Assembly (NCBI GenBank): GCA_016182425.1
Contig: JACPGP010000033.1
Location: forward strand, 1 to 39,798
Length of the DNA: 39,798 bases
From: Candidatus Levyibacteriota bacterium
GTDB lineage: Bacteria; Patescibacteriota; Microgenomatia; Levybacterales; UBA12049
Direction of reading: 5' to 3'
The position numbers and the translations under genes were made by a program. The notes beneath the pieces are model-generated. The model worked only from the letters and a program-made list of their open reading frames with translations, searched no databases and was not told where the DNA came from. Position 1 is the stretch's first letter. Every line of letters begins with the position of its first letter. Positions 22,265 to 39,798 of this stretch are shown here, in pieces.

Positions 22265-23005
22265 ATGTTAGTTATCAAAAATCTCCATATTACCACACAA
22301 GAAAAAGAAATTATTAAAGGTTTAGATATTACGATAGAAAGTGGAGAAGTTCATGCTGTTATGGGTCCAAATGGCGCAGGAAAGACAACACTGGCGATGG
22401 GACTTATGGGACAACCGCAATTCAAAATTCAATCCGGCGATCGCCGGACAAAATTCAAAATTAATGGTGAAGATATGCTTAATAAGTTACCCGAAGAGAG
22501 GGCGAGAGCAGGGTTATTTGTGTCGTTTCAGCAGCCAGTTGAAATAACCGGCGTATCTGTTCTTTCTTTTTTGCGAACCGCATACAAAGCGCTTTATCCA
22601 GAAGAAAAAGTGTCTCTTTCTGAATTTAAGGAACAAGTTAAAAGAGCACTAAGCACAGTTTCATTACCACAAGAGTTTATGCAGCGGTCGCTTAACGAAG
22701 GGTTTTCTGGTGGTGAGAAAAAACGGGCGGAAACTGCCCAACTTTTGATCCTAAAACCAAAGTATGCGATTTTGGACGAGATAGATTCGGGTCTTGATGT
22801 TGATAGTTTAAGGGCTGTTGCAAGGGCAATTAAACAGGCAGTTGAAAAATATAAAATAGGTATACTTCTTATTACCCATTACCAGCGAATTCTTCATCAT
22901 CTTAAGCCCAATTATGTGCATGTGTTGATTGATGGCAAGATCAAAAAATCTGATGGGATGACACTTGTTGAAAAAATCGAAAGGGATGGTTATGCAGCAG
23001 TTTAA
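22265..23005 (+). CDS. sufC: Fe-S assembly ATPase SufC
   Basis: [46 protein letters not shown]. Confidence 0.95.
22418..22462 (+). repeat. Heptamer repeats flanking a perfect 16-bp palindrome inside sufC
   Basis: caattcaaaattcaa-TCCGGCGATCGCCGGA-caaaattcaaaatt. Confidence 0.8.
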
Positions 23006-24383
23006 CCTTTCAAATTACCAATTTGGTTTCCATGACAAAATAAAACCAGTTTTCTCAACTGCTAAAGGGCTATCTGAAGATATAGTGAAAGAAATCTCAT
23101 GGATGAAAAAAGAGCCTGATTGGATGTGGGAAAAAAGGCTTGCTGCGTTAACTCTTTTTTACTCCAAAAAAATGCCAAACTGGGGAGGAGATTTGACTAA
23201 AATTAATTTTGACAATATTTATTACTACATTAAGCCTACAGATAAGCAAGGAAGAACATGGGAAGAGGTGCCAGCGGATATTAAAAATACATTTGACAAA
23301 ATCGGTGTTCCAGAAGCAGAGAAAAAATTTCTGAGTGGAGTTGGGGCTCAATATGATTCGGAAATGATCTATCATAGCATTTCTAAAATGCTTGAAAAAA
23401 AAGGGGTTATTTTTGTAGATACAGATACCGCAGTTAAAAAATACCCAGAATTAGTAAAACAGTATTTTGGGACAATTATTCCTGCCGCAGATAATAAATT
23501 CGCTGCGCTTAATACGGCCGTGTGGAGCGGAGGAAGCTTTATTTATGTACCAAAAGGCGTACGAGTTGACCTTCCTTTACAGGCATATTTTCGTATTAAT
23601 GCCAAGAACATGGGGCAGTTTGAGCGAACGCTGATTATTGCCGATGAAGGGTCATATGTTCATTACGTGGAGGGGTGCTCGGCCCCAATTTTTACTACTG
23701 ATTCGTTGCATAGTGCGGTGGTTGAAATTTTGGTCAAAAAAGGTGCTCGCGTTAGATACACAACAATTCAAAACTGGAGTAAAAATGTCTATAACTTAGT
23801 TACCAAGCGTATGTTTGTTGAAGAAGAAGGCTTCGGAGATTGGATAGACGGAAACCTTGGGAGTCAATTAACAATGAAATATCCTTCGATATATCTAAAG
23901 GGTCGAAAAGCACGGGGAGAAGTGTTATCGCTTGCTTTTGCTGGAAAAGATCAACACCAAGATGCTGGTGGAAAAGCAATTCATTTGGCTCCAGAGACAA
24001 GTTCGGTTATTACTTCAAAATCAATCAGTAAAGACGGCGGTCGAACTTCGTATCGTGGGCTTTTGAAAGTTGCAAAAGGAGCAGTCAATAGTAAATCAAC
24101 AGTTCGTTGTGATGCGCTTATTTTGGATGAGAAGAGCAGATCCGATACCTACCCAACAATGGAAATTAATGAAGAGCGAGTGACAATTGGACATGAGGCG
24201 TCAGTATCGCGAATTGGTGAGGAGCAGCTATTTTATTTTCAATCTCGAGGAATCCCGCAAACACAGGCAGAAGTAATGATTGTCAATGGGTTTGTGGAGC
24301 CAATTGTGCGTGAGTTGCCTATGGAGTATGCAGTAGAGCTAAACCGACTAATTCAATTAGAAATGGTGGGGTCAGTTGGATAA
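22992..24383 (+). CDS. sufB: Fe-S assembly protein SufB
   Basis: [45 protein letters not shown]. Start uncertain (22986 or 22992). Confidence 0.96.
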
Positions 24384-24387
24384 GTAA

Positions 24388-24429
24388 ACCTGCCCGCAAT
24401 CGCTAAAGCGACAGCTTTTGCAGGCGGGT
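24388..24429. repeat. REP-like palindromic element, copy 2 (sufB-sufD intergenic)
   Basis: acctgcccgc-aatcgctaaagcgacagctttt-gcaggcgggt; same ends as the 5663 copy. Confidence 0.75.
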
Positions 24430-24444
24430 GACAGGAGCAGTGGG

Positions 24445-25014
24445 ATGAGAAATATAAAAATAGTTGTTAAAAAAAATGAAGAAAAAGTGTTGCCGTTTGT
24501 GTGGGTTAATGGTGACGAAAAAGAAGTGGCTATAAATGCGCGTTTGGTTGGAGAAGGTGGGAATTTACGTATTGTTGGGGTGTTTCTAGGTAAAGATGCG
24601 AAATCAGTTGTGTTTAACACGCATGTTGTGCACGAAGCACCAAACACTAAAAGCCTAACAACTATTCGGGGCGTATTTAAAAATCATGCATCGTTTAACA
24701 ATGACGGTATGGTGCGCATTAACAAAGGGGCAAAAAACGCAGATGGATATTTTGCTTCAAAAATTCTTCTTTTTGATAATGCAAAAGGCAGAAGTGTTCC
24801 CTCCCTAGAGATTGATGAAAACGAGCTTAAAGCTGGTCATGCCTCAACGGTTGGCAGGCCAGATGAAAACCAATTGTTTTACCTTCGCAGTCGGGGATTA
24901 TCGGAGAAGGAGGCGGCAAATCTTATTGTTACAGGTTTTTTTGAGCCTGTAATAGCGTTACTTTCTAATGAGGATCAAAAAAACATTAGGAGGAAAATAC
25001 ATGAGATCTTATAA
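24445..25014 (+). CDS. sufD: Short SufD-like protein (C-terminal beta-helix only)
   Basis: H.APNTKS, SVPSLEIDENELKAGHASTVG, LFYLRSRGL. ATG at 24445 with an AGGAG SD. Confidence 0.85.
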   Translation: MRNIKIVVKKNEEKVLPFVWVNGDEKEVAINARLVGEGGNLRIVGVFLGKDAKSVVFNTHVVHEAPNTKSLTTIRGVFKNHASFNNDGMVRINKGAKNADGYFASKILLFDNAKGRSVPSLEIDENELKAGHASTVGRPDENQLFYLRSRGLSEKEAANLIVTGFFEPVIALLSNEDQKNIRRKIHEIL

Positions 25015-26206
25015 AAACGATTTTCCAATTTTTCAAAAGAACAAAAAATTTGTTTATTTAGATTCTGCAGCAACATCACAAAAACCAAAAATAGTTCTTG
25101 ATGCGATACAGGAGTATTATGCAACATACAATGCTAATGTAAGGCGGGGGTTATATCCAATTGCCGAAAAAGCAACAAAAAAGGTAGAGAAGGTACGAGA
25201 ACAAGTTGCAAGGTTTATTAATGCCAAAGATCCATCCGAGATTATTTTTGTCCGCAATGCCACAGAAGCAATCAATCTTGCTGCATACTCTTTCGCGTCG
25301 CACAATATTGCTAAGGGGGATAGTGTTGTAACGACTATCATGGAGCATCACAGTAATTTTGTGCCATGGCAACAGCTCGCCATTCAAAAAAATGCTGATT
25401 TTGTTGTTTTAGATATTAGCGAAGATGGTTTTCTTGATCTAGATTTAAAAATCAAAAAAGCCAAGATACTTACATTGACTCATGTGTCAAATGTATTAGG
25501 AACAATTAATCAAATTAAAGATATTATTAAACAGGCAAAAGCAATAAATCCTCAAATAAAAGTTCTGGTAGATGCTGCGCAGTCTATACCTCACATGAAA
25601 GTTGATGTGCAAAATCTGGATTGCGATTTTCTGGCTTTTTCGGGGCATAAAATGATGGCAGCAACTGGTATTGGCGTTTTGTATGGCAAGAGGGAGCTGT
25701 TAAAACAAATGAGGCCATTTTTGTATGGCGGGGAAATGATTAAAGAAGTTAGTATTGCAAAAACAACCTTTACAGATATTCCATATAAATTTGAAGCGGG
25801 AACACCGGATATTGCTGGGATTGTAAGCTTTGGTGCAGCAATTGAGTACTTAAAAAGTACGGGTATAGAAACTATTCAAAAACATGAAAATCGGCTTATA
25901 GCTTATAGCTTATCGCGTATGAAGGAGATTGAGGGATTAACAATATATGGACCAAAAGATATCGAAAAACGCTCTGGAGTAGTTTCGTTCAATCTCAATG
26001 GTATTCATGCGCATGATGTGGCACAAGTGTTAGGGGATATGGATATTTGTATTAGGTCCGGCCACCATTGCGCTATGCCTCTTCATAAGCGATTGGGTAT
26101 CACCGCCTCCGCCAGAGTAAGTTTTTATATTTATAACAATGAGGAAGATGTTGATAAACTTATTGAAAGTATTAAAAAAGTAAAAAAGATATTTAAGTAT
26201 GGATAG
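25001..26206 (+). CDS. sufS: Cysteine desulfurase SufS
   Basis: YLDSAATSQKP, EHHSN, VDAAQS, FSGHKM, RSGHHCA. ATG at 25001 with an AGGAGG SD. Confidence 0.95.
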   Translation: MRSYKNDFPIFQKNKKFVYLDSAATSQKPKIVLDAIQEYYATYNANVRRGLYPIAEKATKKVEKVREQVARFINAKDPSEIIFVRNATEAINLAAYSFASHNIAKGDSVVTTIMEHHSNFVPWQQLAIQKNADFVVLDISEDGFLDLDLKIKKAKILTLTHVSNVLGTINQIKDIIKQAKAINPQIKVLVDAAQSIPHMKVDVQNLDCDFLAFSGHKMMAATGIGVLYGKRELLKQMRPFLYGGEMIKEVSIAKTTFTDIPYKFEAGTPDIAGIVSFGAAIEYLKSTGIETIQKHENRLIAYSLSRMKEIEGLTIYGPKDIEKRSGVVSFNLNGIHAHDVAQVLGDMDICIRSGHHCAMPLHKRLGITASARVSFYIYNNEEDVDKLIESIKKVKKIFKYG

Positions 26207-26582
26207 GCAGACTTTATACAGGGAGGAACTTTTGGAACACTACAGAAATCCCCTTAATTTTGGAGAGCTTTCAGATTACACTGTTTCTGCAAAGCAGACA
26301 AACCCATTTTGTGGAGATGATGTGGAAATGTTTATAAAACTTAATGAGGATAAGGTTGAAGATATAAGATTTACCGGCCAAGGTTGCGCTATTAGTATGG
26401 CAGGAGCATCGATTCTTACAGAACGTGTAAAAGGAAAGGTAAAAAGCCAATTGACAAAGTTTTCGGAAAACGATATGCTCAACCTACTTGGCATTGAAGT
26501 TTCTGAAACACGCAAGAAATGCGCCCTGCTGGCGTTATCGGTGCTAAAAGATTGCATTTATGGCGTTAAAAGTAAAAGTTGA
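26199..26582 (+). CDS. sufU: SufU-type sulfur-transfer/scaffold protein
   Basis: HYRNP.NFG, NPFCGD, GCAIS, RKKCA. Confidence 0.9.
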   Translation: MDRQTLYREELLEHYRNPLNFGELSDYTVSAKQTNPFCGDDVEMFIKLNEDKVEDIRFTGQGCAISMAGASILTERVKGKVKSQLTKFSENDMLNLLGIEVSETRKKCALLALSVLKDCIYGVKSKS

Positions 26583-26832
26583 TCGGGAGTTATGTATTGG
26601 AGCAGCAAGTTGCGTTGCAGTTGCACCAAATACATTTGAATTAGATAACGAGGGGAAAGCTGTTATTAAGAAAAAAGACGGTACCATGACTTCTGATTTT
26701 GTCAACTACACAGATATTGGCGATAATGAGATAAATATCTCGAATGCCGCAAAATCATGTCCTGTTAATGCAATTATTATCGTTGAGGTAGATGATGCGG
26801 GGAACGAAATCCGCCAAGTCTGGCCCGCCTAG
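26560..26832 (+). CDS. Single-cluster ferredoxin, probably [3Fe-4S]
   Basis: CIGAASC...CPVNAI; the second Cys of CxxCxxC is replaced by Ala. Confidence 0.88.
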   Translation: MALKVKVDRELCIGAASCVAVAPNTFELDNEGKAVIKKKDGTMTSDFVNYTDIGDNEINISNAAKSCPVNAIIIVEVDDAGNEIRQVWPA

Positions 26833-26898
26833 TTTTCCCATTCGCCTTTTGGGGTACTATTCGTACACGGCTCATGGAGCAACTTTCGGCGGGCAAGC
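26823..26898. repeat. REP-like palindromic element, copy 3 (overlaps the ferredoxin stop)
   Basis: gcccgcct...ggcgggcaagc; the arms match the secD copy; long interior. Confidence 0.6.
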
Positions 26899-26939
26899 CA
26901 GAAGTATAAATCCTCCACTTTTTTTGATAAAATAACTCT

Positions 26940-28679
26940 ATGGTTGATATTGCGTGGATAATTGGAGGCGAAGCAGGATATGGAATCATGACAACGGGTC
27001 TGATGATGTCGAAAATTATGACCCGACTTGGCCTTTTTGTATTTGACTATGTTGAGTATCCTTCTTTAATTCGCGGTGGACACAATGCATATTATGTTAG
27101 AGCATCGGATGAGCAAATTTTTTCGCAAAAAAGACCGGTTGATATTTTAGTTGCACTAAACCGCGAAACAATTGACAAGCATAAAACAGAACTTTCTTCA
27201 AACGCTGCCATTTTATACGACCCCAATGTTACAAAAGTAGAGCAAAATGAATTTTCTTCCTCTATTCTTTTGGTTCCTGTACCACTTCTTGAGATTACCA
27301 AACAAGTGGGAGCTGACAGGCTAATGATTAATACTGTGGCAGTCGGGGCTAGCCTTGCTTTATTTTATAATGACTACCAAGTGTTACAAGATATACTGCA
27401 AAGTATTTTTGGAAGGAAGGGAGAAAAAGTTGTGGCAGTAAATGTGAATACATCAAAAGCAGGATTTGATTATGTTGCCAAAAACTTTGCGGGAAAGTCG
27501 CCATGGAAAGCTGAAAAAAAGCCACAAGAAAATCTTCTTGTTGGGGGAGCAGAGGCAGCCGCCATTGGAGCAATAAGGGCTGGAGTAAAATTTGCGGCAA
27601 TTTACCCAATGACACCAATAAATGGAGTATTAAATACTCTTTCAGCGCATGCGTTAAAGTACAATATTGTTGTTAAAGAGCCGGAAGATGAGATCGCAGG
27701 AATAAATATGGCAATTGGAGCTTCATATGCTGGAGTTAGGAGTCTTGCGGCAACAAGTGGTGGTGGATTTTCGTTGATGGTTGAAGGTTTAGGACTATCA
27801 GCCCAGACAGAAGTGCCACTGGTTGTTATTGAAGGAATGCGGCCAGGGCCTGCAACTGGTTTTCCCACCTGGACAGCACAGGGAGATTTGCGGTTTGTGA
27901 TGCATGCGGCACAAGATGATTTTCCAAGAATTGTGGTGGCGCCAGGTGATTTTTTGGAAGCATTTACTTATACGATGGAAGCATTTAATTTGGCAGAAAA
28001 ATATCAGTTATTAGTTATCGTGCTGGTTGATAAGTATTTAATGGAGGGACACGCTTCGGTTACAACAGAAAAATTCAAAATTCAAAATGCAAAATTCAAA
28101 ATTGAGAGAGGAAAGATACTCTCTGATCAGGAGGCAGCGGCACAGACGGATTACAAACGTTATGCGTTTGTTGAGGATGGAGTGTCTCCTCGTTCAATCC
28201 CAGGACAGCAAGGAGGTATTGGGCTTTCGGGTTCTGACGAGCACGACGAGCGGGGTCTGTATAACGAAGAGGCAGACAACAGAGTAAAAATGATGGATAA
28301 ACGATTTAAGAAGTTAGAGGAAGCAATAAAGGAAATTCCAGCACCCGCATTCTACGGAGAAAAAGAAGCGCCCATCACTATTGTCGGGTTTGGCTCAACA
28401 AAACTGCCTGTACTTGAAGCGATGAGATGGTTGAAAAAAGAGGGAGTTAATATTAATTTTTTTCAGGTAGCATTCCTTCACCCATTTCCTGTCGATGCAG
28501 TGGCACAAACAATTAAAAATGCTAAAAAAACGCTTGTTATCGAAGGAAATAAAACAGGGCAGTTTGAAGGTTTAATTCGCGAGCGAACTGGACTATCTAT
28601 TAATCACAATTTTAGAAAGTACGATGGCAGACCATTTTATCCGGAAGAAATTGTGCAAAAAGTAAAGGAACTTTTATGA
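26940..28679 (+). CDS. korA: 2-oxoacid:ferredoxin oxidoreductase alpha subunit (with fused gamma domain)
   Basis: IGGEAGYG, YPSLIRGGHN, YPMTP, EDEIAG, ATSGGGFSLM, MRPGPATG. Confidence 0.93.
   Translation: MVDIAWIIGGEAGYGIMTTGLMMSKIMTRLGLFVFDYVEYPSLIRGGHNAYYVRASDEQIFSQKRPVDILVALNRETIDKHKTELSSNAAILYDPNVTKVEQNEFSSSILLVPVPLLEITKQVGADRLMINTVAVGASLALFYNDYQVLQDILQSIFGRKGEKVVAVNVNTSKAGFDYVAKNFAGKSPWKAEKKPQENLLVGGAEAAAIGAIRAGVKFAAIYPMTPINGVLNTLSAHALKYNIVVKEPEDEIAGINMAIGASYAGVRSLAATSGGGFSLMVEGLGLSAQTEVPLVVIEGMRPGPATGFPTWTAQGDLRFVMHAAQDDFPRIVVAPGDFLEAFTYTMEAFNLAEKYQLLVIVLVDKYLMEGHASVTTEKFKIQNAKFKIERGKILSDQEAAAQTDYKRYAFVEDGVSPRSIPGQQGGIGLSGSDEHDERGLYNEEADNRVKMMDKRFKKLEEAIKEIPAPAFYGEKEAPITIVGFGSTKLPVLEAMRWLKKEGVNINFFQVAFLHPFPVDAVAQTIKNAKKTLVIEGNKTGQFEGLIRERTGLSINHNFRKYDGRPFYPEEIVQKVKELL
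28070..28104 (+). repeat. Five heptamer units (AAAATTC-type) inside korA
   Basis: aaaattc aaaattc aaaatgc aaaattc aaaattg, encoding KFKIQNAKFKI. Confidence 0.85.
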
Positions 28680-29566
28680 CAACACTTAAAGATTTAGAGA
28701 TAACTTATGATAAGCCAAACTGGTGTCCGGGGTGTGGCGATATAGGCGTTTGGGTATCGTTGAAAAATGCCATTGTGCAATTAAATCTTAATCCTTGGGA
28801 AGTGGTACTTGTGTCTGGCATTGGGTGCTCGGGAAAACTTCCCTACTGGGTCAAGACTTATGGATTTAATGGTTTACATGGAAGGCCAATGCCGCCTGCA
28901 GAAGCAATTTCCCTTGTCAATCACGGATTAACAGTTATTGTGATTGGCGGTGATGGTGATCAGTATGGAGAAGGCATGGGTCATTTAGTACATGCAGCGC
29001 GTCGAAATGTAAACCTAACACTTCTTGTTCACAATAACCAAATTTATGGTTTAACAACCGGTCAGTATTCACCTACCACCGATATTGGCGAAAAGAATAA
29101 AGCAACGCCTGTACCAACTGTTGAATCACCAGTAAATCCAATTTCTGTGGCGCTTGCTGCTGGCGCAACATTTGTTGGAAGGGGTTTTGCAGGAGACAAC
29201 AAACAAGAAACAGAGCTTTTAGTTTCGGCAATAAAACACAAGGGGTTTTCGATAATTGACACTATGCAGCCATGTGTGACGTTTAACCATAAAAATACCT
29301 TTGCATGGTTTTATGAACGAGTATACAAACTTGAGGCAGAAGGGCATGATCCAAAAGACAAAGCAAAAGCCTTCGCAAGAGCCGAGGAGTGGCCATTGAA
29401 ACGTATGTTAAAAGAAGGGGAGAAAGAGCGTATTGCAACAGGAATTTTTTATAGAGAAGAAAGACCGACATGGCAAGATGGTATTCCCCAAATTGGGGAA
29501 ACCCCACTTGTTAAGCAGCCAATTGATAACGTTGATATTACTCCAATTTTAGATGAGTTAGTCTAA
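28676..29566 (+). CDS. korB: 2-oxoacid:ferredoxin oxidoreductase beta subunit (TPP-binding)
   Basis: WCPGCG, SGIGCSG, HGR, GGDGD, NNQIYGLTTGQYSPT. Confidence 0.93.
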   Translation: MTTLKDLEITYDKPNWCPGCGDIGVWVSLKNAIVQLNLNPWEVVLVSGIGCSGKLPYWVKTYGFNGLHGRPMPPAEAISLVNHGLTVIVIGGDGDQYGEGMGHLVHAARRNVNLTLLVHNNQIYGLTTGQYSPTTDIGEKNKATPVPTVESPVNPISVALAAGATFVGRGFAGDNKQETELLVSAIKHKGFSIIDTMQPCVTFNHKNTFAWFYERVYKLEAEGHDPKDKAKAFARAEEWPLKRMLKEGEKERIATGIFYREERPTWQDGIPQIGETPLVKQPIDNVDITPILDELV

Positions 29567-29571
29567 GAAGC

Positions 29572-29605
29572 AAAACCCCCACGGTGCGAACCTTTTGGGG
29601 GTTTT
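29572..29605. terminator. Likely bidirectional intrinsic terminator
   Basis: AAAACCCCC...GGGGGTTTT 9-bp stem with an inner GGT-GCGA-ACC hairpin, between convergent genes. Confidence 0.7.
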
Positions 29606-29635
29606 CTTGTGTTCGTAAATACTAGAAAGGTTTAC

Positions 29636-29776: not shown

Positions 29777-29798
29777 ATTTTTTATTCACCCCCTTTCG

Positions 29799-30074: not shown

Positions 30075-30096
30075 AGAATAGGCAAAGATTACACTA

Positions 30097-30115
30097 TTGA
30101 CAGAAGTATTGTCAA
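30097..30115. promoter_or_regulatory. Back-to-back -35 boxes of divergent promoters
   Basis: TTGACA-N7-TGTCAA. Each -35 has a TAnnnT hexamer at 18 nt (TAATAT on +, TAATCT on -). Confidence 0.55.
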
Positions 30116-30136: not shown

Positions 30137-30604
30137 ATGGTATTCAGTTTCGAGCTGGTGGGGCTTATTGTTAGTATTCTTTGGTTAATTTTTCTTACCA
30201 CACTTTTATGGCAACTTTCTTCTCACTATAATAATTTAACCCGGGGCATAAGCCAGAAAACACTCAAATCAATTCTAGATCATGTTTTAACAGGAATAGA
30301 AGCAGCGGATAAAAGCATAGTGTCTTTGAAAGCCAGATGTGATAAGCTAGAAAAAGATGGATTGTTTCATATTCAAAAAATTGGACTCTTGCGATTTAAC
30401 CCTTTCAAAGATACAGGAGGAGATCAAAGTTTTATTCTTTCTCTTATAGACGCGAATGATACTGGAATTATTATTACCGGTCTATATTCTCGCTCCGGCA
30501 CACGCTGGTATGCCAAAAAAGTGGAAAATGGAAAAGGGATAGAACACGAGTTGTCAGATGAGGAAAAAAAGGCGATAAAAGAGGCAAAAAGCAGCAATGG
30601 ATAA
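30137..30604 (+). CDS. DUF4446-family protein
   Basis: N-terminal TM helix; QKIGLLRFNPFKDTGGDQSFILSLID...GIIITGLYSR. Confidence 0.85.
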   Translation: MVFSFELVGLIVSILWLIFLTTLLWQLSSHYNNLTRGISQKTLKSILDHVLTGIEAADKSIVSLKARCDKLEKDGLFHIQKIGLLRFNPFKDTGGDQSFILSLIDANDTGIIITGLYSRSGTRWYAKKVENGKGIEHELSDEEKKAIKEAKSSNG

Positions 30605-32346: not shown

Positions 32347-32352
32347 TGCTTC

Positions 32353-33672
32353 ATGAAAAATCCACGAGTTCTTTTTTGGCTCATTATTATTTTAACCATT
32401 ATTGCTATTTTTATCGATTTACCATTTCTTTCTTCACCAAACTTTTTTATTGGATCCTTTCATGTACAGAGAGATTTTTCCATACGGCGCGGATTAGATT
32501 TGGCTGGCGGGGTAAGTATTATCTATAAAGCGCATGTTGACAGTCTGCCATCCGATCAACAAAAAGATGCGCTTATTGCGGCAAAAACTGTTATTGAGCG
32601 CCGAATTAACTTCTTTGGTGTCTCCGAACCGGTCGTTCAGACAGCAACAGTTAATAATGAGGAAAGAATTATTGTGGAGATTCCAGGAATTTCTGATGTT
32701 GATTCGGCAATTAATCTTATTGGCACCACAGCTCAATTAACATTTTGGGAAGAAGGTGCGACCGAATCAGCCCGCCTGCAGTCGCCTGAGGCGACAGCTG
32801 ATGGCGGGCAGGCTAAACTTGCCACCCCTTCGGCATTACCTGTTGGTTTTACTCAAAAAACAGACTTAAGCGGAAAAGATTTACAAAAAGCCGGAGTAAC
32901 ATTTAATCCCAATACAGGTGTACCAGAGGTATCACTTGTTTTCAACAGTGATGGAGGAAAAAAATTTGCCGATATTACAACCAGAAACGTGGGAAAGCCA
33001 GTAGCGATAGTTTTGGATAATCAAATTATCTCGGCCCCGAAAGTAAATACGGCAATTACAGATGGTAATGCTGTTATTACCGGTGGGTTTACCACAGAAC
33101 AGGCAAAAAATTTAAGTATTCAATTAAACGCTGGTGCGCTTCCTGTTACGCTTTCTATCCTTGAACAAAAAACAGTTGGTCCAACACTAGGAGAGACCTC
33201 GCTTAAGACGAGTCTTTTTGCAGGAGGAATTGGTTTTATGGTGATAGTTTTGTTTATGAGTATTTTGTATGGAAGATTTGGCATGATTGCAAGTGCGGCG
33301 CTTGTTTTGTATACACTTTTTGTTTTAGCTATTTTTAAGGCAATTCCAATTACTTTAACGCTTGCTGGAATTGCAGGGTTTATCTTATCTATTGGTATGG
33401 CCGTTGATGCCAATATTCTTATTTTTGAACGAATGAGGGAGGAGTTAAGACACGGTAGAAATCTGCCTGTTTCCTTAGAGCTTGGGTTTGTCAGAGCATG
33501 GAGTTCGATTCGTGACTCCAATATTTCAAGTCTTATTACCAGTTTTATTTTGTACTATTTTGGGACAGGAATTGTTAAAAATTTTGCTCTCACTTTGGCT
33601 ATTGGTGTTTTGGTTTCGATGTTTTCGGCAATTGTTGTTACAAGAACATTTTTAAGACTAGTTTATAAGTAA
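32353..33672 (+). CDS. secD: Protein translocase subunit SecD
   Basis: GLDLAGG, IERRIN.FGVSEP, IIVEIPG, LNAGALP, GMAVDANILIFER. Confidence 0.96.
   Translation: MKNPRVLFWLIIILTIIAIFIDLPFLSSPNFFIGSFHVQRDFSIRRGLDLAGGVSIIYKAHVDSLPSDQQKDALIAAKTVIERRINFFGVSEPVVQTATVNNEERIIVEIPGISDVDSAINLIGTTAQLTFWEEGATESARLQSPEATADGGQAKLATPSALPVGFTQKTDLSGKDLQKAGVTFNPNTGVPEVSLVFNSDGGKKFADITTRNVGKPVAIVLDNQIISAPKVNTAITDGNAVITGGFTTEQAKNLSIQLNAGALPVTLSILEQKTVGPTLGETSLKTSLFAGGIGFMVIVLFMSILYGRFGMIASAALVLYTLFVLAIFKAIPITLTLAGIAGFILSIGMAVDANILIFERMREELRHGRNLPVSLELGFVRAWSSIRDSNISSLITSFILYYFGTGIVKNFALTLAIGVLVSMFSAIVVTRTFLRLVYK
32770..32813. repeat. REP-like palindromic element, copy 4 (inside the secD coding frame)
   Basis: gcccgcctgca-gtcgcc-tga-ggcgac-agctgat-ggcgggcaggc; nested stems; encodes ARLQSPEATADGGQA. 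Confidence 0.75.
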
Positions 33673-33675
33673 ATT

Positions 33676-34560
33676 ATGGATATTGTTGGAAAAAAATATT
33701 GGTATTTTGCCTTCTCGTTTCTGGTAATTATTCCAGGTATTATTTCTTTGCTTCTTTGGGGCTTACGGTTATCAATTGATTTTACCGGAGGAAGCAGATT
33801 TGAATATCAAATATCAAACGGTGAGGTAGAAAAGATTGTAAAAGAGCAAGGGGTTGAGGTAAACTCGGTTGCGCGATCAGGAAGGGATATCTTCATCGTT
33901 CGAACAAAACCGCTAGATCAAAAAGAGCATCAAAAAGTAAAAAATGCTATAGAGAAAAAATTCGAAGGTGCAAAAGAATTGAGTTTTCAAACTATTGGAC
34001 CAACAATTGGACAAGAGACCACTCTTAATGCATTAAAAGCTATTATTATTGCATCTATTCTTATCGTGCTTTATATTTCGTGGTCGTTTCGCAGCGTTCC
34101 AAAACCAGCCAGCAGTTGGCGATTTGGGATTTGCGCGATTGTAGCACTTTTGCATGATGTATTGGTAGTTGTTGGTGTATTTTCTCTGTTTGGCCATTTC
34201 TTACAAGTTGAGGTTGATAGTCTTTTTGTCACGGCTTTACTTACCATTATTGGATTCTCGGTGCACGATACGATTGTGGTGTTTGATCGAATTCGAGAAA
34301 ACTTGCGACGCCTTCCAGGAGTTGCTTTTACAACAGTTGTGAATGATTCAATATTACAGACATTAACTCGATCTCTAAACACATCAATTACAGTTCTCCT
34401 GGTTTTATTTACCATGCTGCTATTTGGGGGAGAAACAATACGCTGGTTTATTGTGGCACTACTTATTGGTATTGCTAGCGGCACATTTTCCTCAATCTTT
34501 AACGCTGCCCCGCTTTTAGTTGTGTGGGAAGAATGGAGCAGGAAAAGAATTAAGATATAA
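33676..34560 (+). CDS. secF: Protein translocase subunit SecF
   Basis: LSIDFTGG, TIGPTIG, LLHDV, GFSVHDTIVVFDRIRE, TLTRSLNTS. Confidence 0.96.
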   Translation: MDIVGKKYWYFAFSFLVIIPGIISLLLWGLRLSIDFTGGSRFEYQISNGEVEKIVKEQGVEVNSVARSGRDIFIVRTKPLDQKEHQKVKNAIEKKFEGAKELSFQTIGPTIGQETTLNALKAIIIASILIVLYISWSFRSVPKPASSWRFGICAIVALLHDVLVVVGVFSLFGHFLQVEVDSLFVTALLTIIGFSVHDTIVVFDRIRENLRRLPGVAFTTVVNDSILQTLTRSLNTSITVLLVLFTMLLFGGETIRWFIVALLIGIASGTFSSIFNAAPLLVVWEEWSRKRIKI

Positions 34561-34669
34561 TGAAAATACAATAGAGATAATTACTGTACATGTAATTTCA
34601 AGTAAAGAAATAAATAATAAGGTGCGTTTAGGAAGGTGGAAAAAGTATGAAGAAAATGAGAAAAACTAA
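34553..34669 (+). pseudogene. 3' remnant of a BrnT/DUF4258-like toxin gene
   Basis: RYNENTIEIITVHVISSKEINNKVRLGRWKKYEENEKN* has no credible start and overlaps the start of the DUF2283 gene, as in toxin-antitoxin pairs. Confidence 0.55.
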
Positions 34670-34883
34670 ACAGAAAGTATATTACGATAAAGAATCAGAT
34701 ATTTTATGGTTTCTTGTAAAAAGTGGCCCAGAAGTTGAGTATAAAGAAATAGCGCCGGGTATAAGTGTTGAACTTGGGGAAAGTGGGGAATTATTGGGTA
34801 TCGAAATCCTTAATGCTTCAAAAGTTTTAAATCCGATTCTTAGTCAAAAGCAGATGCAGATTTCACAAGTGGTAGAGATTTAA
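34647..34883 (+). CDS. DUF2283-family protein (putative antitoxin)
   Basis: YYDKESDILWF...EIAPGISVEL...GELLGIEILNASK. Confidence 0.85.
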   Translation: MKKMRKTKQKVYYDKESDILWFLVKSGPEVEYKEIAPGISVELGESGELLGIEILNASKVLNPILSQKQMQISQVVEI

Positions 34884-35053
34884 GAATTCTTTTAGTTTCA
34901 TTGGTTGTCGCATTGGTAATGAACATCGGAGGATTTTTTAAAGTTACTAATGGCGAACTGTTTTTATACTGGTTATTAAATTTTTTTCTTTGGATTATTT
35001 TGGCGATGGTGGTAATTAGATTGGTAGTTTTGGTATTCAAGAAGGTTTCTTAA
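34880..35053 (+). pseudogene. 5'-truncated or very small 2-TM membrane gene
   Basis: Open frame LRILLVSLVVALVMNIGG...WLLNFFLWIILAMVVIRLVVLVFKKVS*, with no clear start before the first helix. Confidence 0.4.
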
Positions 35054-35065
35054 TTAAGCTAACAA

Positions 35066-35512
35066 TTAGGAAAGTTTCTCTTTTACTATTTTACTAACTA
35101 AACTTCCGTCGGCTTTGCCTTTGGTTTTTGGTATTAAGGCTCCCATCACCTTTCCTATATCGGCAATTGTTGTTGCACCGATTTCGCGGATTGTTTGTTT
35201 GATCTCGCTGATTTCATCCTCAGCCATTTGCGCTGGAAGATATTTTTGCAGCATTTCGAGTTCTTTTGTTTCTTTATCAGCAAGTTCTTGTCTTCCTGCA
35301 GCACTAAATTGTTCGATAGAATCTTTTCTCTGCTTTGCTTCTTTCTGAATAACTGCTAAAACATCTTCGTCTGTTGCGCTGTATCCTGCCCCGCCTTTTT
35401 GGATTTCATAGTAATTTATGGCAGAAAGAAGCAGTCGAAGCACAGAGGTTTTAAGTATGTCTTTTGCCAGCATACTTTGCTTTAATGCTTCTTGTAGTTT
35501 TTGTTTTTGCAT
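35066..35512 (-). CDS. GatB/YqeY domain protein
   Basis: LK.SMLAKD..K.SVLR, KEAKQRKDSIEQF..AGR.ELA.KE..E, DIGKVMG. Confidence 0.92.
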   Translation of the reverse strand: MQKQKLQEALKQSMLAKDILKTSVLRLLLSAINYYEIQKGGAGYSATDEDVLAVIQKEAKQRKDSIEQFSAAGRQELADKETKELEMLQKYLPAQMAEDEISEIKQTIREIGATTIADIGKVMGALIPKTKGKADGSLVSKIVKEKLS

Positions 35513-35519
35513 AAAAGTA

Positions 35520-35528
35520 ATTATAGCA
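35520..35528 (-). promoter_or_regulatory. Perfect extended -10 element
   Basis: TGCTATAAT on the minus strand, 7 nt before the YqeY ATG. Confidence 0.65.
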
Positions 35529-35532
35529 GTTT

Positions 35533-36321
35533 CTAACCTTCGTTTCTGGCAAATTGGCCTATGTCCTTGGATTTCTTAAGCATATAGTTAAAAAACCAGA
35601 GGGAGATAAGAAGATAGACAATGTTTCCAGCAAACGCTATTGTTGTTGCTTGCCAATTAACTGAAGGATTGCTAAGACCTGCTCGCGCAGCCTCAAATAC
35701 ATACGTTGGTGGAAGAAGATATGCTATCGTTTTTAACGTATCGGGAAGTATGCTCACTGGAAAAAATACCGCAGTGAGTGGCTGGAAGAGGAAAATAAGA
35801 CCCCAGGCGAGTGCTTGGAGCCTTTGACCATAGCGGAAAATAATGGCAAGTATAGTAATGCCCACAGACCAGGCAAACAGAGATAAATTGACAAAAAACA
35901 ATCCCAAATTGACAATGCCAATAGTAAAGATATTGAAATTAAAAATAAAATATGCAACAGCAGATATTATAAGAACTGTTGGTATTGTCTTTATTGCGCC
36001 AGATAGCATTGCCGCAGCCAAATACTCAAAAATGGTAAGAGGAGCAATAAACATATTGCTTAGATTTCGGGACCAAATATTCCAAAGTGCGCCAACTGAT
36101 ATGGAGTACTGTGTGATGCGTATGACTTCCCAGAGAATCATCCCCAAAAGGATATACACTGCTCCAACGCTATCTTCTTGTTTGGAAAGGAATGTAAAGA
36201 CAAAGCCAAACACGATAATATTAATAAGAGAGAAATAAAAAAGGTCAAGTATTACCTCAAGCGATTTTCTTGTTATATACCATTCTTGAAGAAGTATTGC
36301 TTTTATTCTTTCAAACGGCAT
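35533..36321 (-). CDS. ABC-2 type transporter permease
   Basis: Six TM helices; WSRNLSNMFIAPL, VFFPVSILP, PPTYVFEAAR. Confidence 0.88.
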   Translation of the reverse strand: MPFERIKAILLQEWYITRKSLEVILDLFYFSLINIIVFGFVFTFLSKQEDSVGAVYILLGMILWEVIRITQYSISVGALWNIWSRNLSNMFIAPLTIFEYLAAAMLSGAIKTIPTVLIISAVAYFIFNFNIFTIGIVNLGLFFVNLSLFAWSVGITILAIIFRYGQRLQALAWGLIFLFQPLTAVFFPVSILPDTLKTIAYLLPPTYVFEAARAGLSNPSVNWQATTIAFAGNIVYLLISLWFFNYMLKKSKDIGQFARNEG

Positions 36322-37237
36322 GTGTTTTACCTCTTACAATCTCTAAGAAAACGTCCTCCAGAGTTGGTTTTTTAACGTCTATATCAGTAAGCCAAATATG
36401 CTTGCCAAGATCAAAAATAATGCTTGGAATTTTTTTCTCTTCGGTTTGGATATGAACAAGATAGTTTTTTACAAACGTAAAGGGTATTTTTTCTTTCTTT
36501 AAATATGATTCAACTGTTTGTTTTTTCCCATCGAATGTCAACGCTAGGGTTGCCAGACCAACTTGCTTTGTCAGGTTAAGCGGTGAATCTTCTGCCACAA
36601 TTTTTCCATGATCCAAAAAGATGACGCGATCACAAAGACGAGTTACCTCTTCCATATCATGGCTGGTGTAGAGAATTGCAATATTTCTTGACTCTCGCAA
36701 ATGCTCAATAAATGATAGCGTTTTATCTGCAACATCAGGGTCAAGGCCAGCCGTTGGTTCATCCATAAGCAGGAGCTGCGGATCATTAAGCAGAGATTTG
36801 ATAATATTGACAATACTTTTTTGTCCGGTTGAAAGATCCCAATACCGATTGTTAAGAAACGAATGAATCGAGAATTGCTCAACAAGATCCATAATTTTCT
36901 TTTTGGGATTTTTAACCTGGTAAAGGTGCGCAAAGACCAGAAGATTTTCCCATACAGAAATCCTTCCCTGAAGTGTGTTAAATGCAGAAGCAAAGTTGAT
37001 GTGTTGGAGACAGTATTGCCGATTTGTCAAAAAATCTTTTCCAAAATAAGAGATAGTGCCGCCATTGGCAAGCGTTATCCCCAACAGCATATGCATGGCG
37101 GTTGTTTTACCAGCGCCGTTTGGGCCAAGTAACCCTAAAATTTCGCCATCGGCAACAGAAAAAGAAATATTGTCAACTGCAGTAAAGCTGCCAAAGTTTT
37201 TTGTTAAATTTTTTACTTCAAGAATTGAATTTTGCAT
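36311..37237 (-). CDS. ABC transporter ATP-binding protein (DrrA/NodI-like)
   Basis: [37 protein letters not shown]. Start set at MQNSIL. Confidence 0.9.
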   Translation of the reverse strand: MQNSILEVKNLTKNFGSFTAVDNISFSVADGEILGLLGPNGAGKTTAMHMLLGITLANGGTISYFGKDFLTNRQYCLQHINFASAFNTLQGRISVWENLLVFAHLYQVKNPKKKIMDLVEQFSIHSFLNNRYWDLSTGQKSIVNIIKSLLNDPQLLLMDEPTAGLDPDVADKTLSFIEHLRESRNIAILYTSHDMEEVTRLCDRVIFLDHGKIVAEDSPLNLTKQVGLATLALTFDGKKQTVESYLKKEKIPFTFVKNYLVHIQTEEKKIPSIIFDLGKHIWLTDIDVKKPTLEDVFLEIVRGKTHAV

Positions 37238-38579
37238 ATTCGTGAATACGTTTAATGAGATATTCTTTTGTGTTTTTTGAGAGGTCGGCATCTACCTCTT
37301 CAAAAAGTTTTTGGAGGATTTCGCCGACTTTTGGGCCTGGTTTTATGTTTAATTCTCTCATTACATCATTGCCATCGATTGATAAATCATTTATCGAAAA
37401 TGCCGCAGGAGCTAATTCTTTTTCGACTCTCTCTTTAAACAATTTTAGCCTCCAGCTCTCTGCAGTTTTTGTGCCGCTGCCTAATCTATCTGCCACGCGA
37501 AGATCTAGCATGTCTTGGATATTTTCAATGCCAACACGTCGTATAAATCGTCTGATTGCGGCATCAGTTGATTTTTCGTCTACTGTAAACATATGCCACC
37601 TGATTAGCGTTACTACTTTGTCTCTATCTTTTTTGGAAAACTTTAAGCGATCACAAATATCTTTAGCAATTCTTGTTCCGACAATTTCGTGGTTGTGGAA
37701 AATAACCAGTCCTTCTTGGTCTTCTCCTTTTACTTTTGGTTTTCCTACATCATGCAAAAGAGTGGTAAAACGAACAATTGGATCTTTTGATGGACAGAAT
37801 TTAAGAGAAAGCATATTGTGGGTAAAGACATCTGTGGTATGATGACGCCCAGGCCTGACCTGCGAAACACCAACTCCCTCTAATAGTTCGGGAAGTATCT
37901 GTTCAAGAAGCAAGGCATTACGAAGCAGCATTATACCGTCGTAGGGATATTCACTGGAAAGTATACGCAAAAGCTCAACGCGTATTCGCTCACCTGAAAC
38001 ATGGGTGATAAGTTTTGCGTCTTTTTGGATTTCGTTACAGGTTTGTTCTTCGATGGTAAATCCAAGCTCGGTTGCAATGCGGACTGCCCGCATAAGCCGC
38101 AAGGCGTCCTCTTTGAATCTAAGTTTTGGGTCGCCAACGGCACGAATAAGCCTTGCTTGGATATCTTCTTGTCCTTCGTAAGGATCGATAATGGAAGATG
38201 GTAATTTAAGAGCGATAGCGTTTATGGTAAAGTCTCGGCGGGCGAGGTCTTCTTCGATTGTTTTTCCCCATTTGACTTTGTCCGGACGACGTTTGTCCGA
38301 GTAGGCTGTTTCTGTTCGAAAAGTTGTTATCTCGACAATATGTTTTTCATTCTCAATTTCGATAGGAACGCCGACAGTGCCAAATTGATTGTCGTAAAAA
38401 CCATCGGGGAAAATTTTTAGTAACTCTTCTGGCACAGCGTTTGTAGTAAGATCCCAGTCTTTGACGGGTTTTTTCATAAGCAGATTTCGAACACAACCAC
38501 CGACAAAATAAACATCAAAATTAGCACTTACCAGCTTTTTATAAACAGCAACAATTTCTGATGGGATAAAATCAATCAT
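37218..38579 (-). CDS. cca: CCA tRNA nucleotidyltransferase with HD domain
   Basis: VGGCVRN, DWDLTT, EITTFR, DLARRDFTINA, EDALRLMRA, LLHDVGK. Start set at MIDFIP. Confidence 0.92.
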   Translation of the reverse strand: MIDFIPSEIVAVYKKLVSANFDVYFVGGCVRNLLMKKPVKDWDLTTNAVPEELLKIFPDGFYDNQFGTVGVPIEIENEKHIVEITTFRTETAYSDKRRPDKVKWGKTIEEDLARRDFTINAIALKLPSSIIDPYEGQEDIQARLIRAVGDPKLRFKEDALRLMRAVRIATELGFTIEEQTCNEIQKDAKLITHVSGERIRVELLRILSSEYPYDGIMLLRNALLLEQILPELLEGVGVSQVRPGRHHTTDVFTHNMLSLKFCPSKDPIVRFTTLLHDVGKPKVKGEDQEGLVIFHNHEIVGTRIAKDICDRLKFSKKDRDKVVTLIRWHMFTVDEKSTDAAIRRFIRRVGIENIQDMLDLRVADRLGSGTKTAESWRLKLFKERVEKELAPAAFSINDLSIDGNDVMRELNIKPGPKVGEILQKLFEEVDADLSKNTKEYLIKRIHEYAKFNS

Positions 38580-38582
38580 ATC

Positions 38583-38597
38583 TGCTATAGTATAGCA
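38583..38597. promoter_or_regulatory. Palindromic overlapping extended -10 elements for cca and recJ
   Basis: TGCTATA-G-TATAGCA reads TGCTATAGT on + and TGCTATACT on -. Confidence 0.6.
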
Positions 38598-38611
38598 AAG
38601 AAATTTCATTT

Positions 38612-39798
38612 ATGAAGAAGTGGAAAATCATAGGCAAATCAAAAACTGGTAATATCCTTGATCTTCTTTTACAAAATCGAGGGATAAAGACAAAAAAAGA
38701 AATAGAAGAGTTTTTGCATCCAAAACTTGAGAGTGTTACCACAAAAACTGTTGGGGTAGATCAAAAGCAGCTTAAAATTGCGGTAAAGAGAATTCAAAAA
38801 GCAATTGAAGATAAAGAGCAGATTGTCGTTTTTGGTGATTATGATGTAGATGGTATATGCGGCGCTGCGATTTTGTGGGAAACACTTTATGCTCTTGGCG
38901 CATCGGTTATTCCATATATTCCTCATCGGGTTGATGAGGGATATGGCCTGTCGAAGACAGGAATTTCCAATATCCAATCTCAAATGTCAAATGTCAAATT
39001 AATAATAACGGTGGATAATGGGATTGTGGCAAATGATGCAGTTGAATTTGCAAAAAGAGAGGGAATTGATGTAATTATTACCGATCATCACGTGCCAGGG
39101 AAAAAACTTCCAAAAGCGCACGCGATTGTGCATACAACAAAATTATGTGGCACCGCAGTAGCGTACTTATTAGCGCAAGAATTCAAAATTCTGGAAGACC
39201 ATCTTGGATTAGTGGCACTGGCGACAGTTGCGGATTTGGTGCCATTGACAGGAGCTAATCGAACGCTATTAACTTATGGGTTAAATATCCTTCAAAAAAC
39301 AAAACGGACAGGAATTATGGCAATATGTAGTGAGGCGGGAATAGATCAGAGAACAATCGGCACATACGAAATTGGACATGTAATTGCGCCCAGACTTAAT
39401 GCGATGGGAAGATTGGAATATGCCATGGACAGTCTTCGCCTGTTGTGTACAAAAGATCAGCAACGTGCAAAGTTGTTGGCGGAGAAGTTGGGATCAACGA
39501 ATAGAGAAAGACAAGAGTTGACGTTAGAAACAGTGCTGCACGCAACGTCAGGAATCAGGAATCAGGAATCAGGAATCAGGAAAAAATTACTCTTTATTTC
39601 CCATGAATCGTATCAGCAGGGTGTTATTGGGCTCGTGGCGGGAAAATTAGTTGAAGAGTTTTATCGTCCTGCAATTGTTGTTTCAAAGGGGGAGAAAGTT
39701 AGTAAAGCTTCGGCGCGGTCTGTACATGGGTTTAATATTATCGAATTTATTCGTCTTGCTTCGGAGCATTTGGTTGATGTCGGAGGACACCCAATGGC
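38612..39798 (+). CDS. recJ: ssDNA exonuclease RecJ (3'-incomplete; absent from the ORF track because it has no stop in the window)
   Basis: My translation from the ATG at 38612: GDYDVDG, PHRVDEGYG, ITVDNG, ITDHH, ATVAD, APRLNAMGR, GVIGLVAGK, SARS, GGH. Confidence 0.96.
   Translation, partial: MKKWKIIGKSKTGNILDLLLQNRGIKTKKEIEEFLHPKLESVTTKTVGVDQKQLKIAVKRIQKAIEDKEQIVVFGDYDVDGICGAAILWETLYALGASVIPYIPHRVDEGYGLSKTGISNIQSQMSNVKLIITVDNGIVANDAVEFAKREGIDVIITDHHVPGKKLPKAHAIVHTTKLCGTAVAYLLAQEFKILEDHLGLVALATVADLVPLTGANRTLLTYGLNILQKTKRTGIMAICSEAGIDQRTIGTYEIGHVIAPRLNAMGRLEYAMDSLRLLCTKDQQRAKLLAEKLGSTNRERQELTLETVLHATSGIRNQESGIRKKLLFISHESYQQGVIGLVAGKLVEEFYRPAIVVSKGEKVSKASARSVHGFNIIEFIRLASEHLVDVGGHPM
38962..39000 (+). 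repeat. Degenerate heptamer array inside recJ
   Basis: aatttcc aatatcc aatctca aatgtca aatgtca aatt, encoding ISNIQSQMSNVK. Confidence 0.75.
39548..39582 (+). repeat. Perfect (TCAGGAA)5 array inside recJ
   Basis: Five exact units, encoding SGIRNQESGIR. Confidence 0.95.

Follow-up and report, generated by a model that had tools for sequence, protein, structure and literature searches.

In-frame heptanucleotide tandem arrays at fixed-length positions within protein-coding genes of a Candidatus Levyibacteriota bacterium

We analysed a 39,798-nt stretch of DNA from a Candidatus Levyibacteriota bacterium (contig JACPGP010000033.1, positions 1 to 39,798 of the forward strand, assembly GCA_016182425.1), hereafter referred to as the window, with respect to the 7-nt tandem arrays that lie inside its protein-coding genes. 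The window is contig C11 of the 797-kb genome (G000) of this tiny groundwater bacterium, with 38 contigs, a GC content of approximately 39 % and a completeness of 88 %. Arrays were found by Tandem Repeats Finder (TRF) and by direct reading of the letters, and the identities of the host genes were assigned by Pfam. The period-7 arrays reported in a preliminary description of this DNA, in sufC, korA, secF and twice in recJ, were all seen by TRF and reading, and the list of open reading frames (ORFs) agreed with its statement that the frames of all array hosts are open. Two further period-7 arrays, at 25894–25913 and 30518–30539, are missing from that description. The host genes and arrays are as follows, all on the forward (+) strand except for the palindrome, for which no strand is given.

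22265..23005, + strand: gene for a SufC-like ATP-binding cassette (ABC) ATPase, host of the first array (ORF; PF00005 ABC_tran)
22418..22432, + strand: left half of a split array, AATTCAA ×2.1, CAATTCAAAATTCAA (direct reading)
22433..22448, no strand: 16-nt GC-rich perfect palindrome, TCCGGCGATCGCCGGA, inside the SufC-like array and translated in frame (direct reading)
22450..22465, + strand: right half of the split array, AAAATTC/AAAATTA, AAAATTCAAAATTAAT (direct reading)
25894..25913, + strand: GCTTATA ×2.9 in a class-V aminotransferase (cysteine desulfurase-like) gene (TRF, Pfam)
26940..28679, + strand: gene for a KorA-like 2-oxoacid:ferredoxin oxidoreductase alpha subunit (POR, POR_N, PFOR_II)
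28070..28103, + strand: AAAATTC ×4.9 with one T>G mismatch, 92 % match, reading KFKIQNAKFKI (TRF and reading)
30518..30539, + strand: AAAATGG ×3.1, 86 % matches, in a DUF4446 gene (TRF, Pfam)
33676..34560, + strand: secF, host gene (SecD_SecF_C, Sec_GG)
33803..33818, + strand: secF array, AATATCA ×2.3 only (TRF and reading)
38612..39796, + strand: recJ, with two arrays and its 3′ end beyond the window (DHH, DHHA1)
38962..38999, + strand: RecJ slot 1, successively AATTTCC, AATATCC, AATCTCA, AATGTCA, AATGTCA and AAT, 5.4 units of the form AAT-N-TC-(C/A), perfect over 38980–38999 (reading)
39548..39582, + strand: RecJ slot 2, TCAGGAA ×5.0, perfect (100 %), reading SGIRNQESGIRK (TRF and reading)

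The two half-arrays of the SufC-like gene (22418–22465) are a single array, divided by the 16-nt palindrome. The earlier view of the hosts as essential genes was overstated: recJ was found in 55 of 61 relatives, but clear SufC orthologues in only about 13 and korA in nine. The genomes with KorA-like and SufC-like genes form largely identical sets (G008, G011, G038, G020, G036, G002 and G033), and since both genes occur in largely the same genomes, the suf–kor region looks like an accessory block of the array-rich clade described below.

Across the whole genome, exact arrays of at least three copies numbered 14 for period 7, one for period 9 and none for periods 5, 6 and 8; at a threshold of four copies, period 7 was represented by 12 arrays and every other period from 4 to 15 by none. 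A mismatch-tolerant scan returned 19 period-7 arrays in the genome as against one in each of five codon-shuffled genomes, this single array lying in sequence that the shuffle had left untouched. Periods of 7, 14 and 21 predominated among the TRF rows of the genome scoring at least 50. The flanks of RecJ from 97 other genomes (253 kb) contained seven period-7 arrays of at least four copies and none of any other period. The frequency of period 7 relative to periods 5 and 8 had been set beforehand as the comparison on which the signature would stand or fall; because period 7 proved far commoner, we regard the signature as real. An assembly artefact is excluded, because the arrays recur at orthologous positions in many independent assemblies. 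With at least three head-to-tail copies of high identity, and with clear over-representation, the arrays have both of these properties of heptanucleotide microsatellites.

The exact-run lengths of 44 arrays from five genomes clustered at 30–35 nt with a mode of 32 nt, none exceeding 35 nt, and ORFs of 100 aa or more contain 42 of these 44 exact arrays (about 95 %). Longer arrays were seen in RecJ of the relative G038 (38 nt) and in the relative G043 (55 nt). The latter, a perfect (AAATTAG)7.9 in the sample G043:C1, is the only array far over five units in approximately 3 Mb examined, and its genome is MutS-positive and otherwise array-poor. Perfect period-14 arrays also exist, for example at C2 11125–11163. 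On contig C21 of G000, a perfect 42-nt repeat of 2.4 copies (3585–3686) codes for the C-terminal Pro/Thr/Ser-rich linker (SPTPTPTVEPSPSV) of a 634-aa ORF. Although 42 equals 6 × 7, this in-frame minisatellite is of an ordinary kind and has nothing to do with the 7-nt units.

RecJ was compared over 98 loci, 30 from related genomes and 68 from metagenome contigs, the best metagenome match to the RecJ of this genome being 71 % identical. Both RecJ slots carry heptamer arrays at the same place in many other genera, with units that differ: at least 10 unit classes were found at slot 1 (AATCTCA, AATGTCA, AATTAAA, AATTGAA, AATTCAG, AATCAAG and others) and at least 13 at slot 2 (AAAAATC, AAAAGTC, TCAGGAA, AATCAAG, AATTCAG, TATCAGC and others). 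Slot 1 is 51 nt long in 27 of 28 array-bearing and in 44 of 57 array-less distinct sequences; slot 2 is 54 nt long in 20 of 23 array-bearing sequences, and 54 nt is also the modal array-less length. Because slots with and without arrays are equal in length, the RecJ arrays are base-for-base replacements and not insertions, and the same equality rules out an origin by a +21-nt insertion for the RecJ and korA slots. Among approximately 90 slot-spanning RecJ orthologues, all taken as consensus assemblies, in which minority alleles would not show, no out-of-frame allele was found at either slot.

Conserved codons bound slot 1 on its two sides, GGA ATT (Gly-Ile) and AAA TTA (Lys-Leu), and the arrays are phased on both. 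The conserved G-I-x-N motif gives an imperfect 7-nt repeat, AATTnnnAAT, and all slot-1 units begin with AAT in that phase; the AAT-N4 pattern of the preliminary description therefore reflects, in slot 1, the phase set by these codons. In an AlphaFold2 model of the N-terminal 395 residues of RecJ (37 sequences; mean predicted local distance difference test score, pLDDT, of 89), slot 1 (residues 119–129) covers the C-terminal turn of helix 115–124, the loop 125–127 and the start of strand 128–134, and slot 2 (residues 313–324) covers the end of the long interdomain helix 283–316 and the loop before strand 327–331, with a pLDDT of 76–83. This modelled placement at helix ends and loops agrees with the earlier suggestion that the arrays occupy tolerant loops. 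Some peptide patterns are partly kept, ISNxKSQISNxK being found at RecJ slot 1 in two families. Conservation of the peptides by orthologues, which had been named as a result that would speak against a repeat-generating process, was thus found in part: slot position, length and sometimes pattern (ISNxKSQ, KFK[IV]Q) are kept, but the DNA unit changes in all copies together. In addition, approximately 30–100 nt of unaligned in-frame sequence interrupts the RecJ match close to query residue 190 in G029, G007, G015, G028, G052 and G005, which points to a possible third insertion site or variable site, one that would be empty in this genome.

At the korA slot, relatives carry AAAGTTC, CAATTTC or no array in place of the AAAATTC found here, the length being identical, and the KorA peptide pattern FK[IV]Q..KFK[IV]ERGK is partly conserved. 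At the SufC-like slot, seven relatives carry five other unit types (AGTATCA, AATCAAA, AATATCA, AATATCA/AATTTCA and CAATTTC), and canonical SufC is four residues shorter. In secF, the segment after a conserved Arg comprises 19 codons in this genome as against 26 in G038 (L167) and in array-less orthologues (29 others compared); two orthologues with GC-rich inserts in their arrays exceed 26 codons. The deficit is exactly 21 nt, equal to three AATATCA units, with 2.3 units here versus 5.4 in G038. Because the missing 21 nt match three units of the 5.4-unit array of G038, we interpret the window array as a contracted remnant. This three-unit difference is a change of unit number between related genomes, a further property of microsatellites, and the 21-nt step was observed only as a contraction and only in secF. 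No frame disruption was found in the open frames returned by the relative-genome searches for array-host genes.

The array-bearing slots diverge faster than their own genes. Between pairs of RecJ sequences with flanks 80–99.5 % identical, array-less slot 1 is 90 % identical (flank 84 %), whereas array-bearing slots are 57–70 % identical. The RecJ genes L048 and L079, which are 93.0 % identical outside the slots, are 97 % identical in slot 1 and 53 % identical in slot 2, with equal length. Their differences in slot 2 are limited to one patch of approximately 40 nt, in which AAAGACTATATAAAAATTAAAAAAAAGAAACTTAAT is replaced by ATGAGTAGAATCAAAAATCAAAAATCAAAAATCAAA, and array and non-array states are discordant with the flanking variants. 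Such discordance implies repeated formation, retained polymorphism or patch recombination.

A perfect array requires a unit that is cyclically free of TAA, TAG and TGA, because within 21 nt the ribosome meets the 7-mer in each of the three frames. Stop-containing units persist only with substitutions exactly at the in-frame stop positions. The array at C16 525–557 has an exact period of 21, an A>T change abolishing the in-frame TAA, and at RecJ slot 1 the critical unit, like the one 21 nt further on, reads AATTTAA in AATTAAA arrays and AATTGTA in AATTGAA arrays. Likewise, the GCTTATA array at 25894 stops just before the next in-frame codon, TAG. The reverse-complement unit contains a stop in 26 of the 29 genic arrays of this genome, compared with an expected fraction of 0.29–0.49, so that the reverse strand is stop-free in three of 29 (expected fraction, 0.51–0.71). 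Because reverse-complement units mostly carry stops, only one orientation survives in a gene and array orientation is forced. The earlier statement that the arrays all lie on the coding strand is hence correct as an observation, but it results from translation rather than from the mechanism. Of the 29 arrays, 26 lie in genes that run in the same direction as the local majority, and the counter-examples are too few to separate the replication strand from the coding strand.

More than 15 different units occur in this genome. The AAT-N4 form fits all five window units for which it was proposed, but genome-wide a TCA core is commoner (17 of 29), and the unit logo reads T-C-A-(A>>G)-(A>T)-(T>A)-N. 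A stop filter together with base composition was considered as a full account of unit choice and rejected, as the orientation follows from it, whereas the TCA excess and the narrow vocabulary do not. We infer that a unit can pass from T into a purine-rich run without creating a stop only by way of TC, and that TCA and CAA then encode benign Ser and Gln where the alternatives give Tyr, Trp or Cys; an enzymatic preference or copying between loci may be other sources of the bias. On the sense strand, 15 of 42 exact arrays are T-rich, some encoding strongly hydrophobic peptides near N-termini, such as FIFYFSFFIFHF, which are possibly membrane segments. In a broader search of 401 Patescibacteria genomes, drawn evenly, 10 genomes from many families contained (AAAATTC)4 with one mismatch or none, which bears out the mention in the preliminary description of FKIQNSK-type peptides in proteins of the candidate phyla radiation (CPR).

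The distribution of the arrays was assessed in twelve relatives, from approximately 200 kb of each (152 kb for G006), by counting exact period-7 arrays of at least three copies.

G038: array-rich, MutS absent, 7 arrays
G011: array-rich, MutS absent, 7 arrays
G008: array-rich, MutS absent, 8 arrays
G006 (152 kb): array-rich, MutS absent, 8 arrays
G023: array-poor, MutS present, 0 arrays
G013: array-poor, MutS present, 0 arrays
G043: array-poor, MutS present, 1 array
G015: array-poor, MutS present, 0 arrays
G010: array-poor, MutS absent, 0 arrays
G034: array-poor, MutS absent, 0 arrays
G021: array-poor, MutS absent, 1 array
G029: array-poor, MutS absent, 1 array

The four array-rich relatives are the group whose RecJ is closest to that of this genome, and no enrichment of any period other than 7 was found in any of the twelve. 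The trait is clade-limited and is not explained by MutS, exonuclease VII (ExoVII), DinB or reverse transcriptase (RT). The MutS domain is missing from this genome and from 48 of 61 relatives; all array-rich genomes are MutS-less, but so are the array-poor G010, G034, G021 and G029, and loss of MutS is therefore not a sufficient cause. ExoVII is missing in 14 of 16 genomes tested, with one further match below the cut-off, and its loss was rejected as a cause since it is absent from nearly all genomes, rich and poor alike. A DinB-type polymerase was set aside for the converse reason, being present in nearly all genomes of both kinds. The RT domain RVT_1 was not found in G000 (88 % complete) or in 47 of 61 relatives, including the array-rich G038, G011 and G008. 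The association with RT genes that had been proposed earlier thus fails for this genome and for three array-rich relatives out of the four sampled, and RT-templated addition, whether telomerase-like or of the kind seen in diversity-generating retroelements, finds no support, as there is no RVT_1 here and no single templating unit among the more than 15 units.

GC-rich palindromic or hairpin inserts of 16–30 nt, in frame, were observed inside heptamer arrays, namely at 22433–22448 of the window, at C24:64680–64696, C35:7288–7307 and C23:48099–48120 of G000, and in orthologues of recJ (L021, L035, L083, L088, L043 and L067), secF (L141 and L142) and korA (L104). In RecJ slot 2 of L083, L035 and L021, a 24-nt insert (consensus approximately TCCATTCGGCAAGCTCAGGACAAG) directly follows GTCAA, and L083 without this insert is a perfect (AAAAGTC)5, identical to L032. 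Eight metagenome RecJ sequences (L056, L058, L067, L069, L070, L073, L076 and L077) have an in-frame slot-1 insert of approximately 48–63 nt after AATGTCA, composed of two hairpins (ATCCTGAAtttattTCAGGAT ... ATGCTGAAacaagTTCAGCAT) and encoding VILNLFQDPK...MLKQVQHD. Judged from these positions, heptamer arrays seem to serve as landing pads for GC-rich inserts. A cluster of arrays was seen in the array-rich G008, where L271 (G008:C2) contains five GTCAATT/GTCAACT-type arrays within 8 kb (7463–15033) among short ORFs encoding SIVNCQLSIVNC peptides, with a sixth at L270 17318; this may be a paralogous small-protein family or a repeat-rich island. Elsewhere in the window, positions 12001–14000 have a GC content of 0.46 compared with approximately 0.38 in the remainder, and the GC skew collapses there.

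An excess of heptanucleotides among long bacterial simple sequence repeats was described by Mrazek, Guo and Shah in 2007, according to Rehm et al. 2015 (PMC4692102), whose account also gives the idea that the excess reflects a polymerase footprint and lists GGGAATC in Xanthomonas, GGGGA(C/T)T in Nostoc and the heptamers of Calothrix as known families. As in that account, seven is here the only long unit length that is over-represented, the loci are many and dispersed, and both length and sequence vary at the same locus. The Xanthomonas, Nostoc and Calothrix heptamers are described there as mostly intergenic, often with one G-rich unit per genome and up to 26 units long (PMC4692102). Unlike these intergenic families, including the cyanobacterial short tandemly repeated repetitive (STRR) sequences and GGGAATC, the present arrays lie within ORFs in 42 of 44 cases, are in frame, have four to five units drawn from many A-rich types, and occupy fixed-length positions. 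The arrays are a coding-region variant of the known bacterial heptamer excess, and a literature search found no publication on in-frame heptamers in CPR/Patescibacteria.

Two heptamers in coding DNA are also known. In neuO of the Escherichia coli K1 prophage CUS-3, the poly-psi variable-number tandem repeat AAGACTC, present in 2–93 copies at the 5′ end, is a proven high-frequency ON/OFF switch (PMC3046976). As in our arrays, three units encode one 7-residue peptide and only multiples of three keep the frame (PMC3046976), and the unit, if written TCAAGAC, fits the TCA(A/G)-core vocabulary observed here. However, neuO is an accessory surface-modification gene with its repeat at the extreme 5′ end (PMC3046976), whereas the present arrays are internal, in housekeeping genes, low in copy number and locked in length, with no OFF allele seen. 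In pflu0185 of Pseudomonas fluorescens, a GGTGCCC array was born by slipped-strand mispairing from the seed GGTGcccGGTG (bioRxiv 10.1101/2024.05.01.592015), which parallels AATTnnnAAT in RecJ slot 1. That case differs in that the gene is a regulator under strong laboratory selection for switching, copy number determines the phenotype, and there is no length-neutral turnover (bioRxiv 10.1101/2024.05.01.592015). What sets the present arrays apart from both the intergenic families and the switches is that they have few copies, lie in the interior of housekeeping genes, change their units within slots of fixed length and show no OFF allele among those seen.

A length-neutral precedent is provided by serial replication slippage, or templated mutagenesis, at imperfect direct repeats, a concept of the human-genetics and phage T4 literature. 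It would yield templated and possibly net-zero replacements that perfect imperfect repeats, and is described as a rare, one-off event. The concept would fit the patch that distinguishes L048 from L079, but differs from a lineage-wide, period-specific process at dozens of loci.

Taken together, we consider it probable that the arrays are formed by heptamer slippage or templated misalignment at tolerant fixed-length slots and filtered by selection, and that they are by-products rather than devices. Under this slippage reading, DNA synthesis in this lineage would be prone to re-pairing of the nascent strand out of register by 7 nt or multiples thereof, by serial replication slippage or templated misalignment, starting from an imperfect 7-nt periodicity of conserved codons, such as GGA ATT nnn AAT in RecJ slot 1. 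Successive slips, backward and forward, would overwrite the adjoining, weakly constrained sequence with one unit. Selection would then discard net length changes other than 0 (rarely ±21 nt), units with TAA, TAG or TGA in any of the three sense-strand frames, and units coding for badly tolerated residues. The survivors would be mainly A-rich, TCA(A/G)-core units encoding S/Q/K/N/I peptides in soluble loops, with a minority of T-rich units whose hydrophobic peptides may lie in membrane segments. Arrays would hold at approximately four to five units, since longer ones plausibly frameshift too often and shorter ones plausibly stop homogenizing, and a repair background without MutS and mostly without ExoVII may be permissive. 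The preliminary description had likewise proposed a repeat-generating process filtered by selection, and the period-7 specificity together with the stop and frame filtering supports that part of it. Its alternative of a mobile-element footprint finds no support, as arrays with the same unit do not share flanks or ends and their phase is set by conserved codons.

Several observations weigh against slippage as just described. Slippage was never observed directly, and the case for it comes from the tandem structure, the three-unit contraction in secF and the literature precedents. With the arrays masked, 7-mers recurred genome-wide at lag 7 no more often than at neighbouring lags; the process does not act diffusely along the genome. 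Nothing explains a register of 7 rather than 5 or 8, and there are zero period-8 arrays where a model of threshold plus seed frequency predicts a few. Because one slip in a two-unit array adds one unit, several events would have to be coordinated to give an in-frame +3 step, or a net-zero rewrite of approximately 17 positions in genes that are 93 % identical, and slippage by single units does not readily produce the perfect period-14 arrays. A cyclic TCA is present in 17 of the 29 units of this genome and in 31 of 42 units from five array-rich genomes (59–74 %), where 14–25 % is expected, and pairs of arrays share an identical unit in 1.9 % of cases between genomes and 3.6 % within them (permutation P=0.03), as against an expectation of approximately 0.3–1.2 %. 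Lastly, G010 and G034 lack MutS and have zero arrays in 200 kb.

A dedicated lineage-specific enzyme that works in 7-nt steps and writes or renews patches of approximately 30–35 nt where the DNA is broken or gapped would account for a number of these points, and we regard it as unlikely but the strongest of the alternatives; candidates would be a repair polymerase, a primase-polymerase and the machinery that serves the small GC-rich hairpin elements. It would explain the sharp period specificity, the abrupt rewriting of an approximately 40-nt patch between L048 and L079, the contrast between rich and poor genomes within one family that MutS, ExoVII and DinB leave unexplained, and the GC-rich hairpin inserts within arrays, several of which directly follow GTCA(A). 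The narrow length range of 30–35 nt (mode 32 nt), with no exact run over 35 nt in 44 arrays, also points to such an enzyme, but arrays of 38 nt (RecJ of G038) and 55 nt (G043) occur as well. The TCA-core bias exceeds the stop and composition filters; yet both this bias and the length limit may arise by selection, through frameshift load and benign Ser/Gln codons. No candidate gene was found, RT being absent here and in three of four sampled array-rich relatives, and array richness may in part represent inherited arrays rather than present activity. The question of why seven, the sharp clade boundary, the one-patch rewrites, the period-14 arrays and the narrow vocabulary keep such a writer alive as a minority reading.

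We hold it to be improbable that arrays spread between loci, by a copy-and-paste cassette or ectopic gene conversion, with the units of one genome related by descent. The excess of identical-unit pairs within genomes (3.6 % versus 1.9 % between genomes, P=0.03) is consistent with spread, as are the occurrence of AATCTCA in four genes and of AATTTCC in three in G038, of AATTCAG in both RecJ slots of L009/L050, and the recurrence of the same units across the phylum. However, a limited tolerated vocabulary accounts for much unit sharing, and the strongest within-genome cluster (AATTGAC, four times in G008) is largely confined to a single 8-kb stretch of short ORFs and may reflect paralogy. Flanks are not shared, and the arrays are phased on locally conserved codons. 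Moreover, the minimum length usually required for RecA-mediated exchange is 30 nt or more.

Contingency loci, in which gain or loss of one unit would switch a gene off or on and second-order selection would maintain the array, were also raised in the preliminary description. The gain or loss of one 7-nt unit does shift the frame, and heptanucleotide switches are known, as in neuO (PMC3046976) and the evolved pflu0185 (10.1101/2024.05.01.592015). Nevertheless, the hosts encode RecJ, SecF, SufC-like and KorA-like proteins instead of surface or variable functions, the arrays have only four to five copies and lie mid-gene at conserved-length positions, none of approximately 90 slot-spanning RecJ orthologues is out of frame, and the open frames from the relative-genome searches are all intact, which makes phase variation very unlikely. 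Protein-level selection for functional repeated peptides can hardly be credited despite the partial conservation of ISNxKSQISNxK (RecJ slot 1, two families) and FK[IV]Q..KFK[IV]ERGK (KorA), because peptide selection cannot yield an exact 7-nt DNA periodicity when one unit is read in three frames, synonymous sites are homogenized as well, and other orthologues have unrelated peptides or ordinary sequence of the same length.

Repeats with a unit that is not a multiple of three are usually expected to avoid coding DNA or to act as on/off switches, and the arrays described here do neither. They form a natural experiment on loop tolerance, since a single 7-mer has to serve a protein loop in each of its three frames, and on how mutational bias and purifying selection together produce concerted evolution within a gene. 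The recurrent low-complexity peptides that result (KFKIQNS, NQESGIR and ISNLKSQ) can mislead homology searches, alignments and gene calling in CPR proteins. Slippage in bacteria favours 7-nt units, and the existence of sister lineages with and without the trait now frames the question, posed by the heptamer excess reported in 2007, of why the unit is seven. A more far-reaching proposal, which we put forward as doubtful, is that a subclade acquired, or uncovered through loss of a safeguard, a heritable synthesis or repair activity in a 7-nt register that overwrites patches of approximately 30–35 nt at fixed tolerant places in genes, and that the TCA(A)-rich patches then became landing pads for GC-rich palindromic inserts. 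If such an activity existed, comparing the array-rich with the array-poor members of one family would offer a direct handle on the bacterial heptamer excess.

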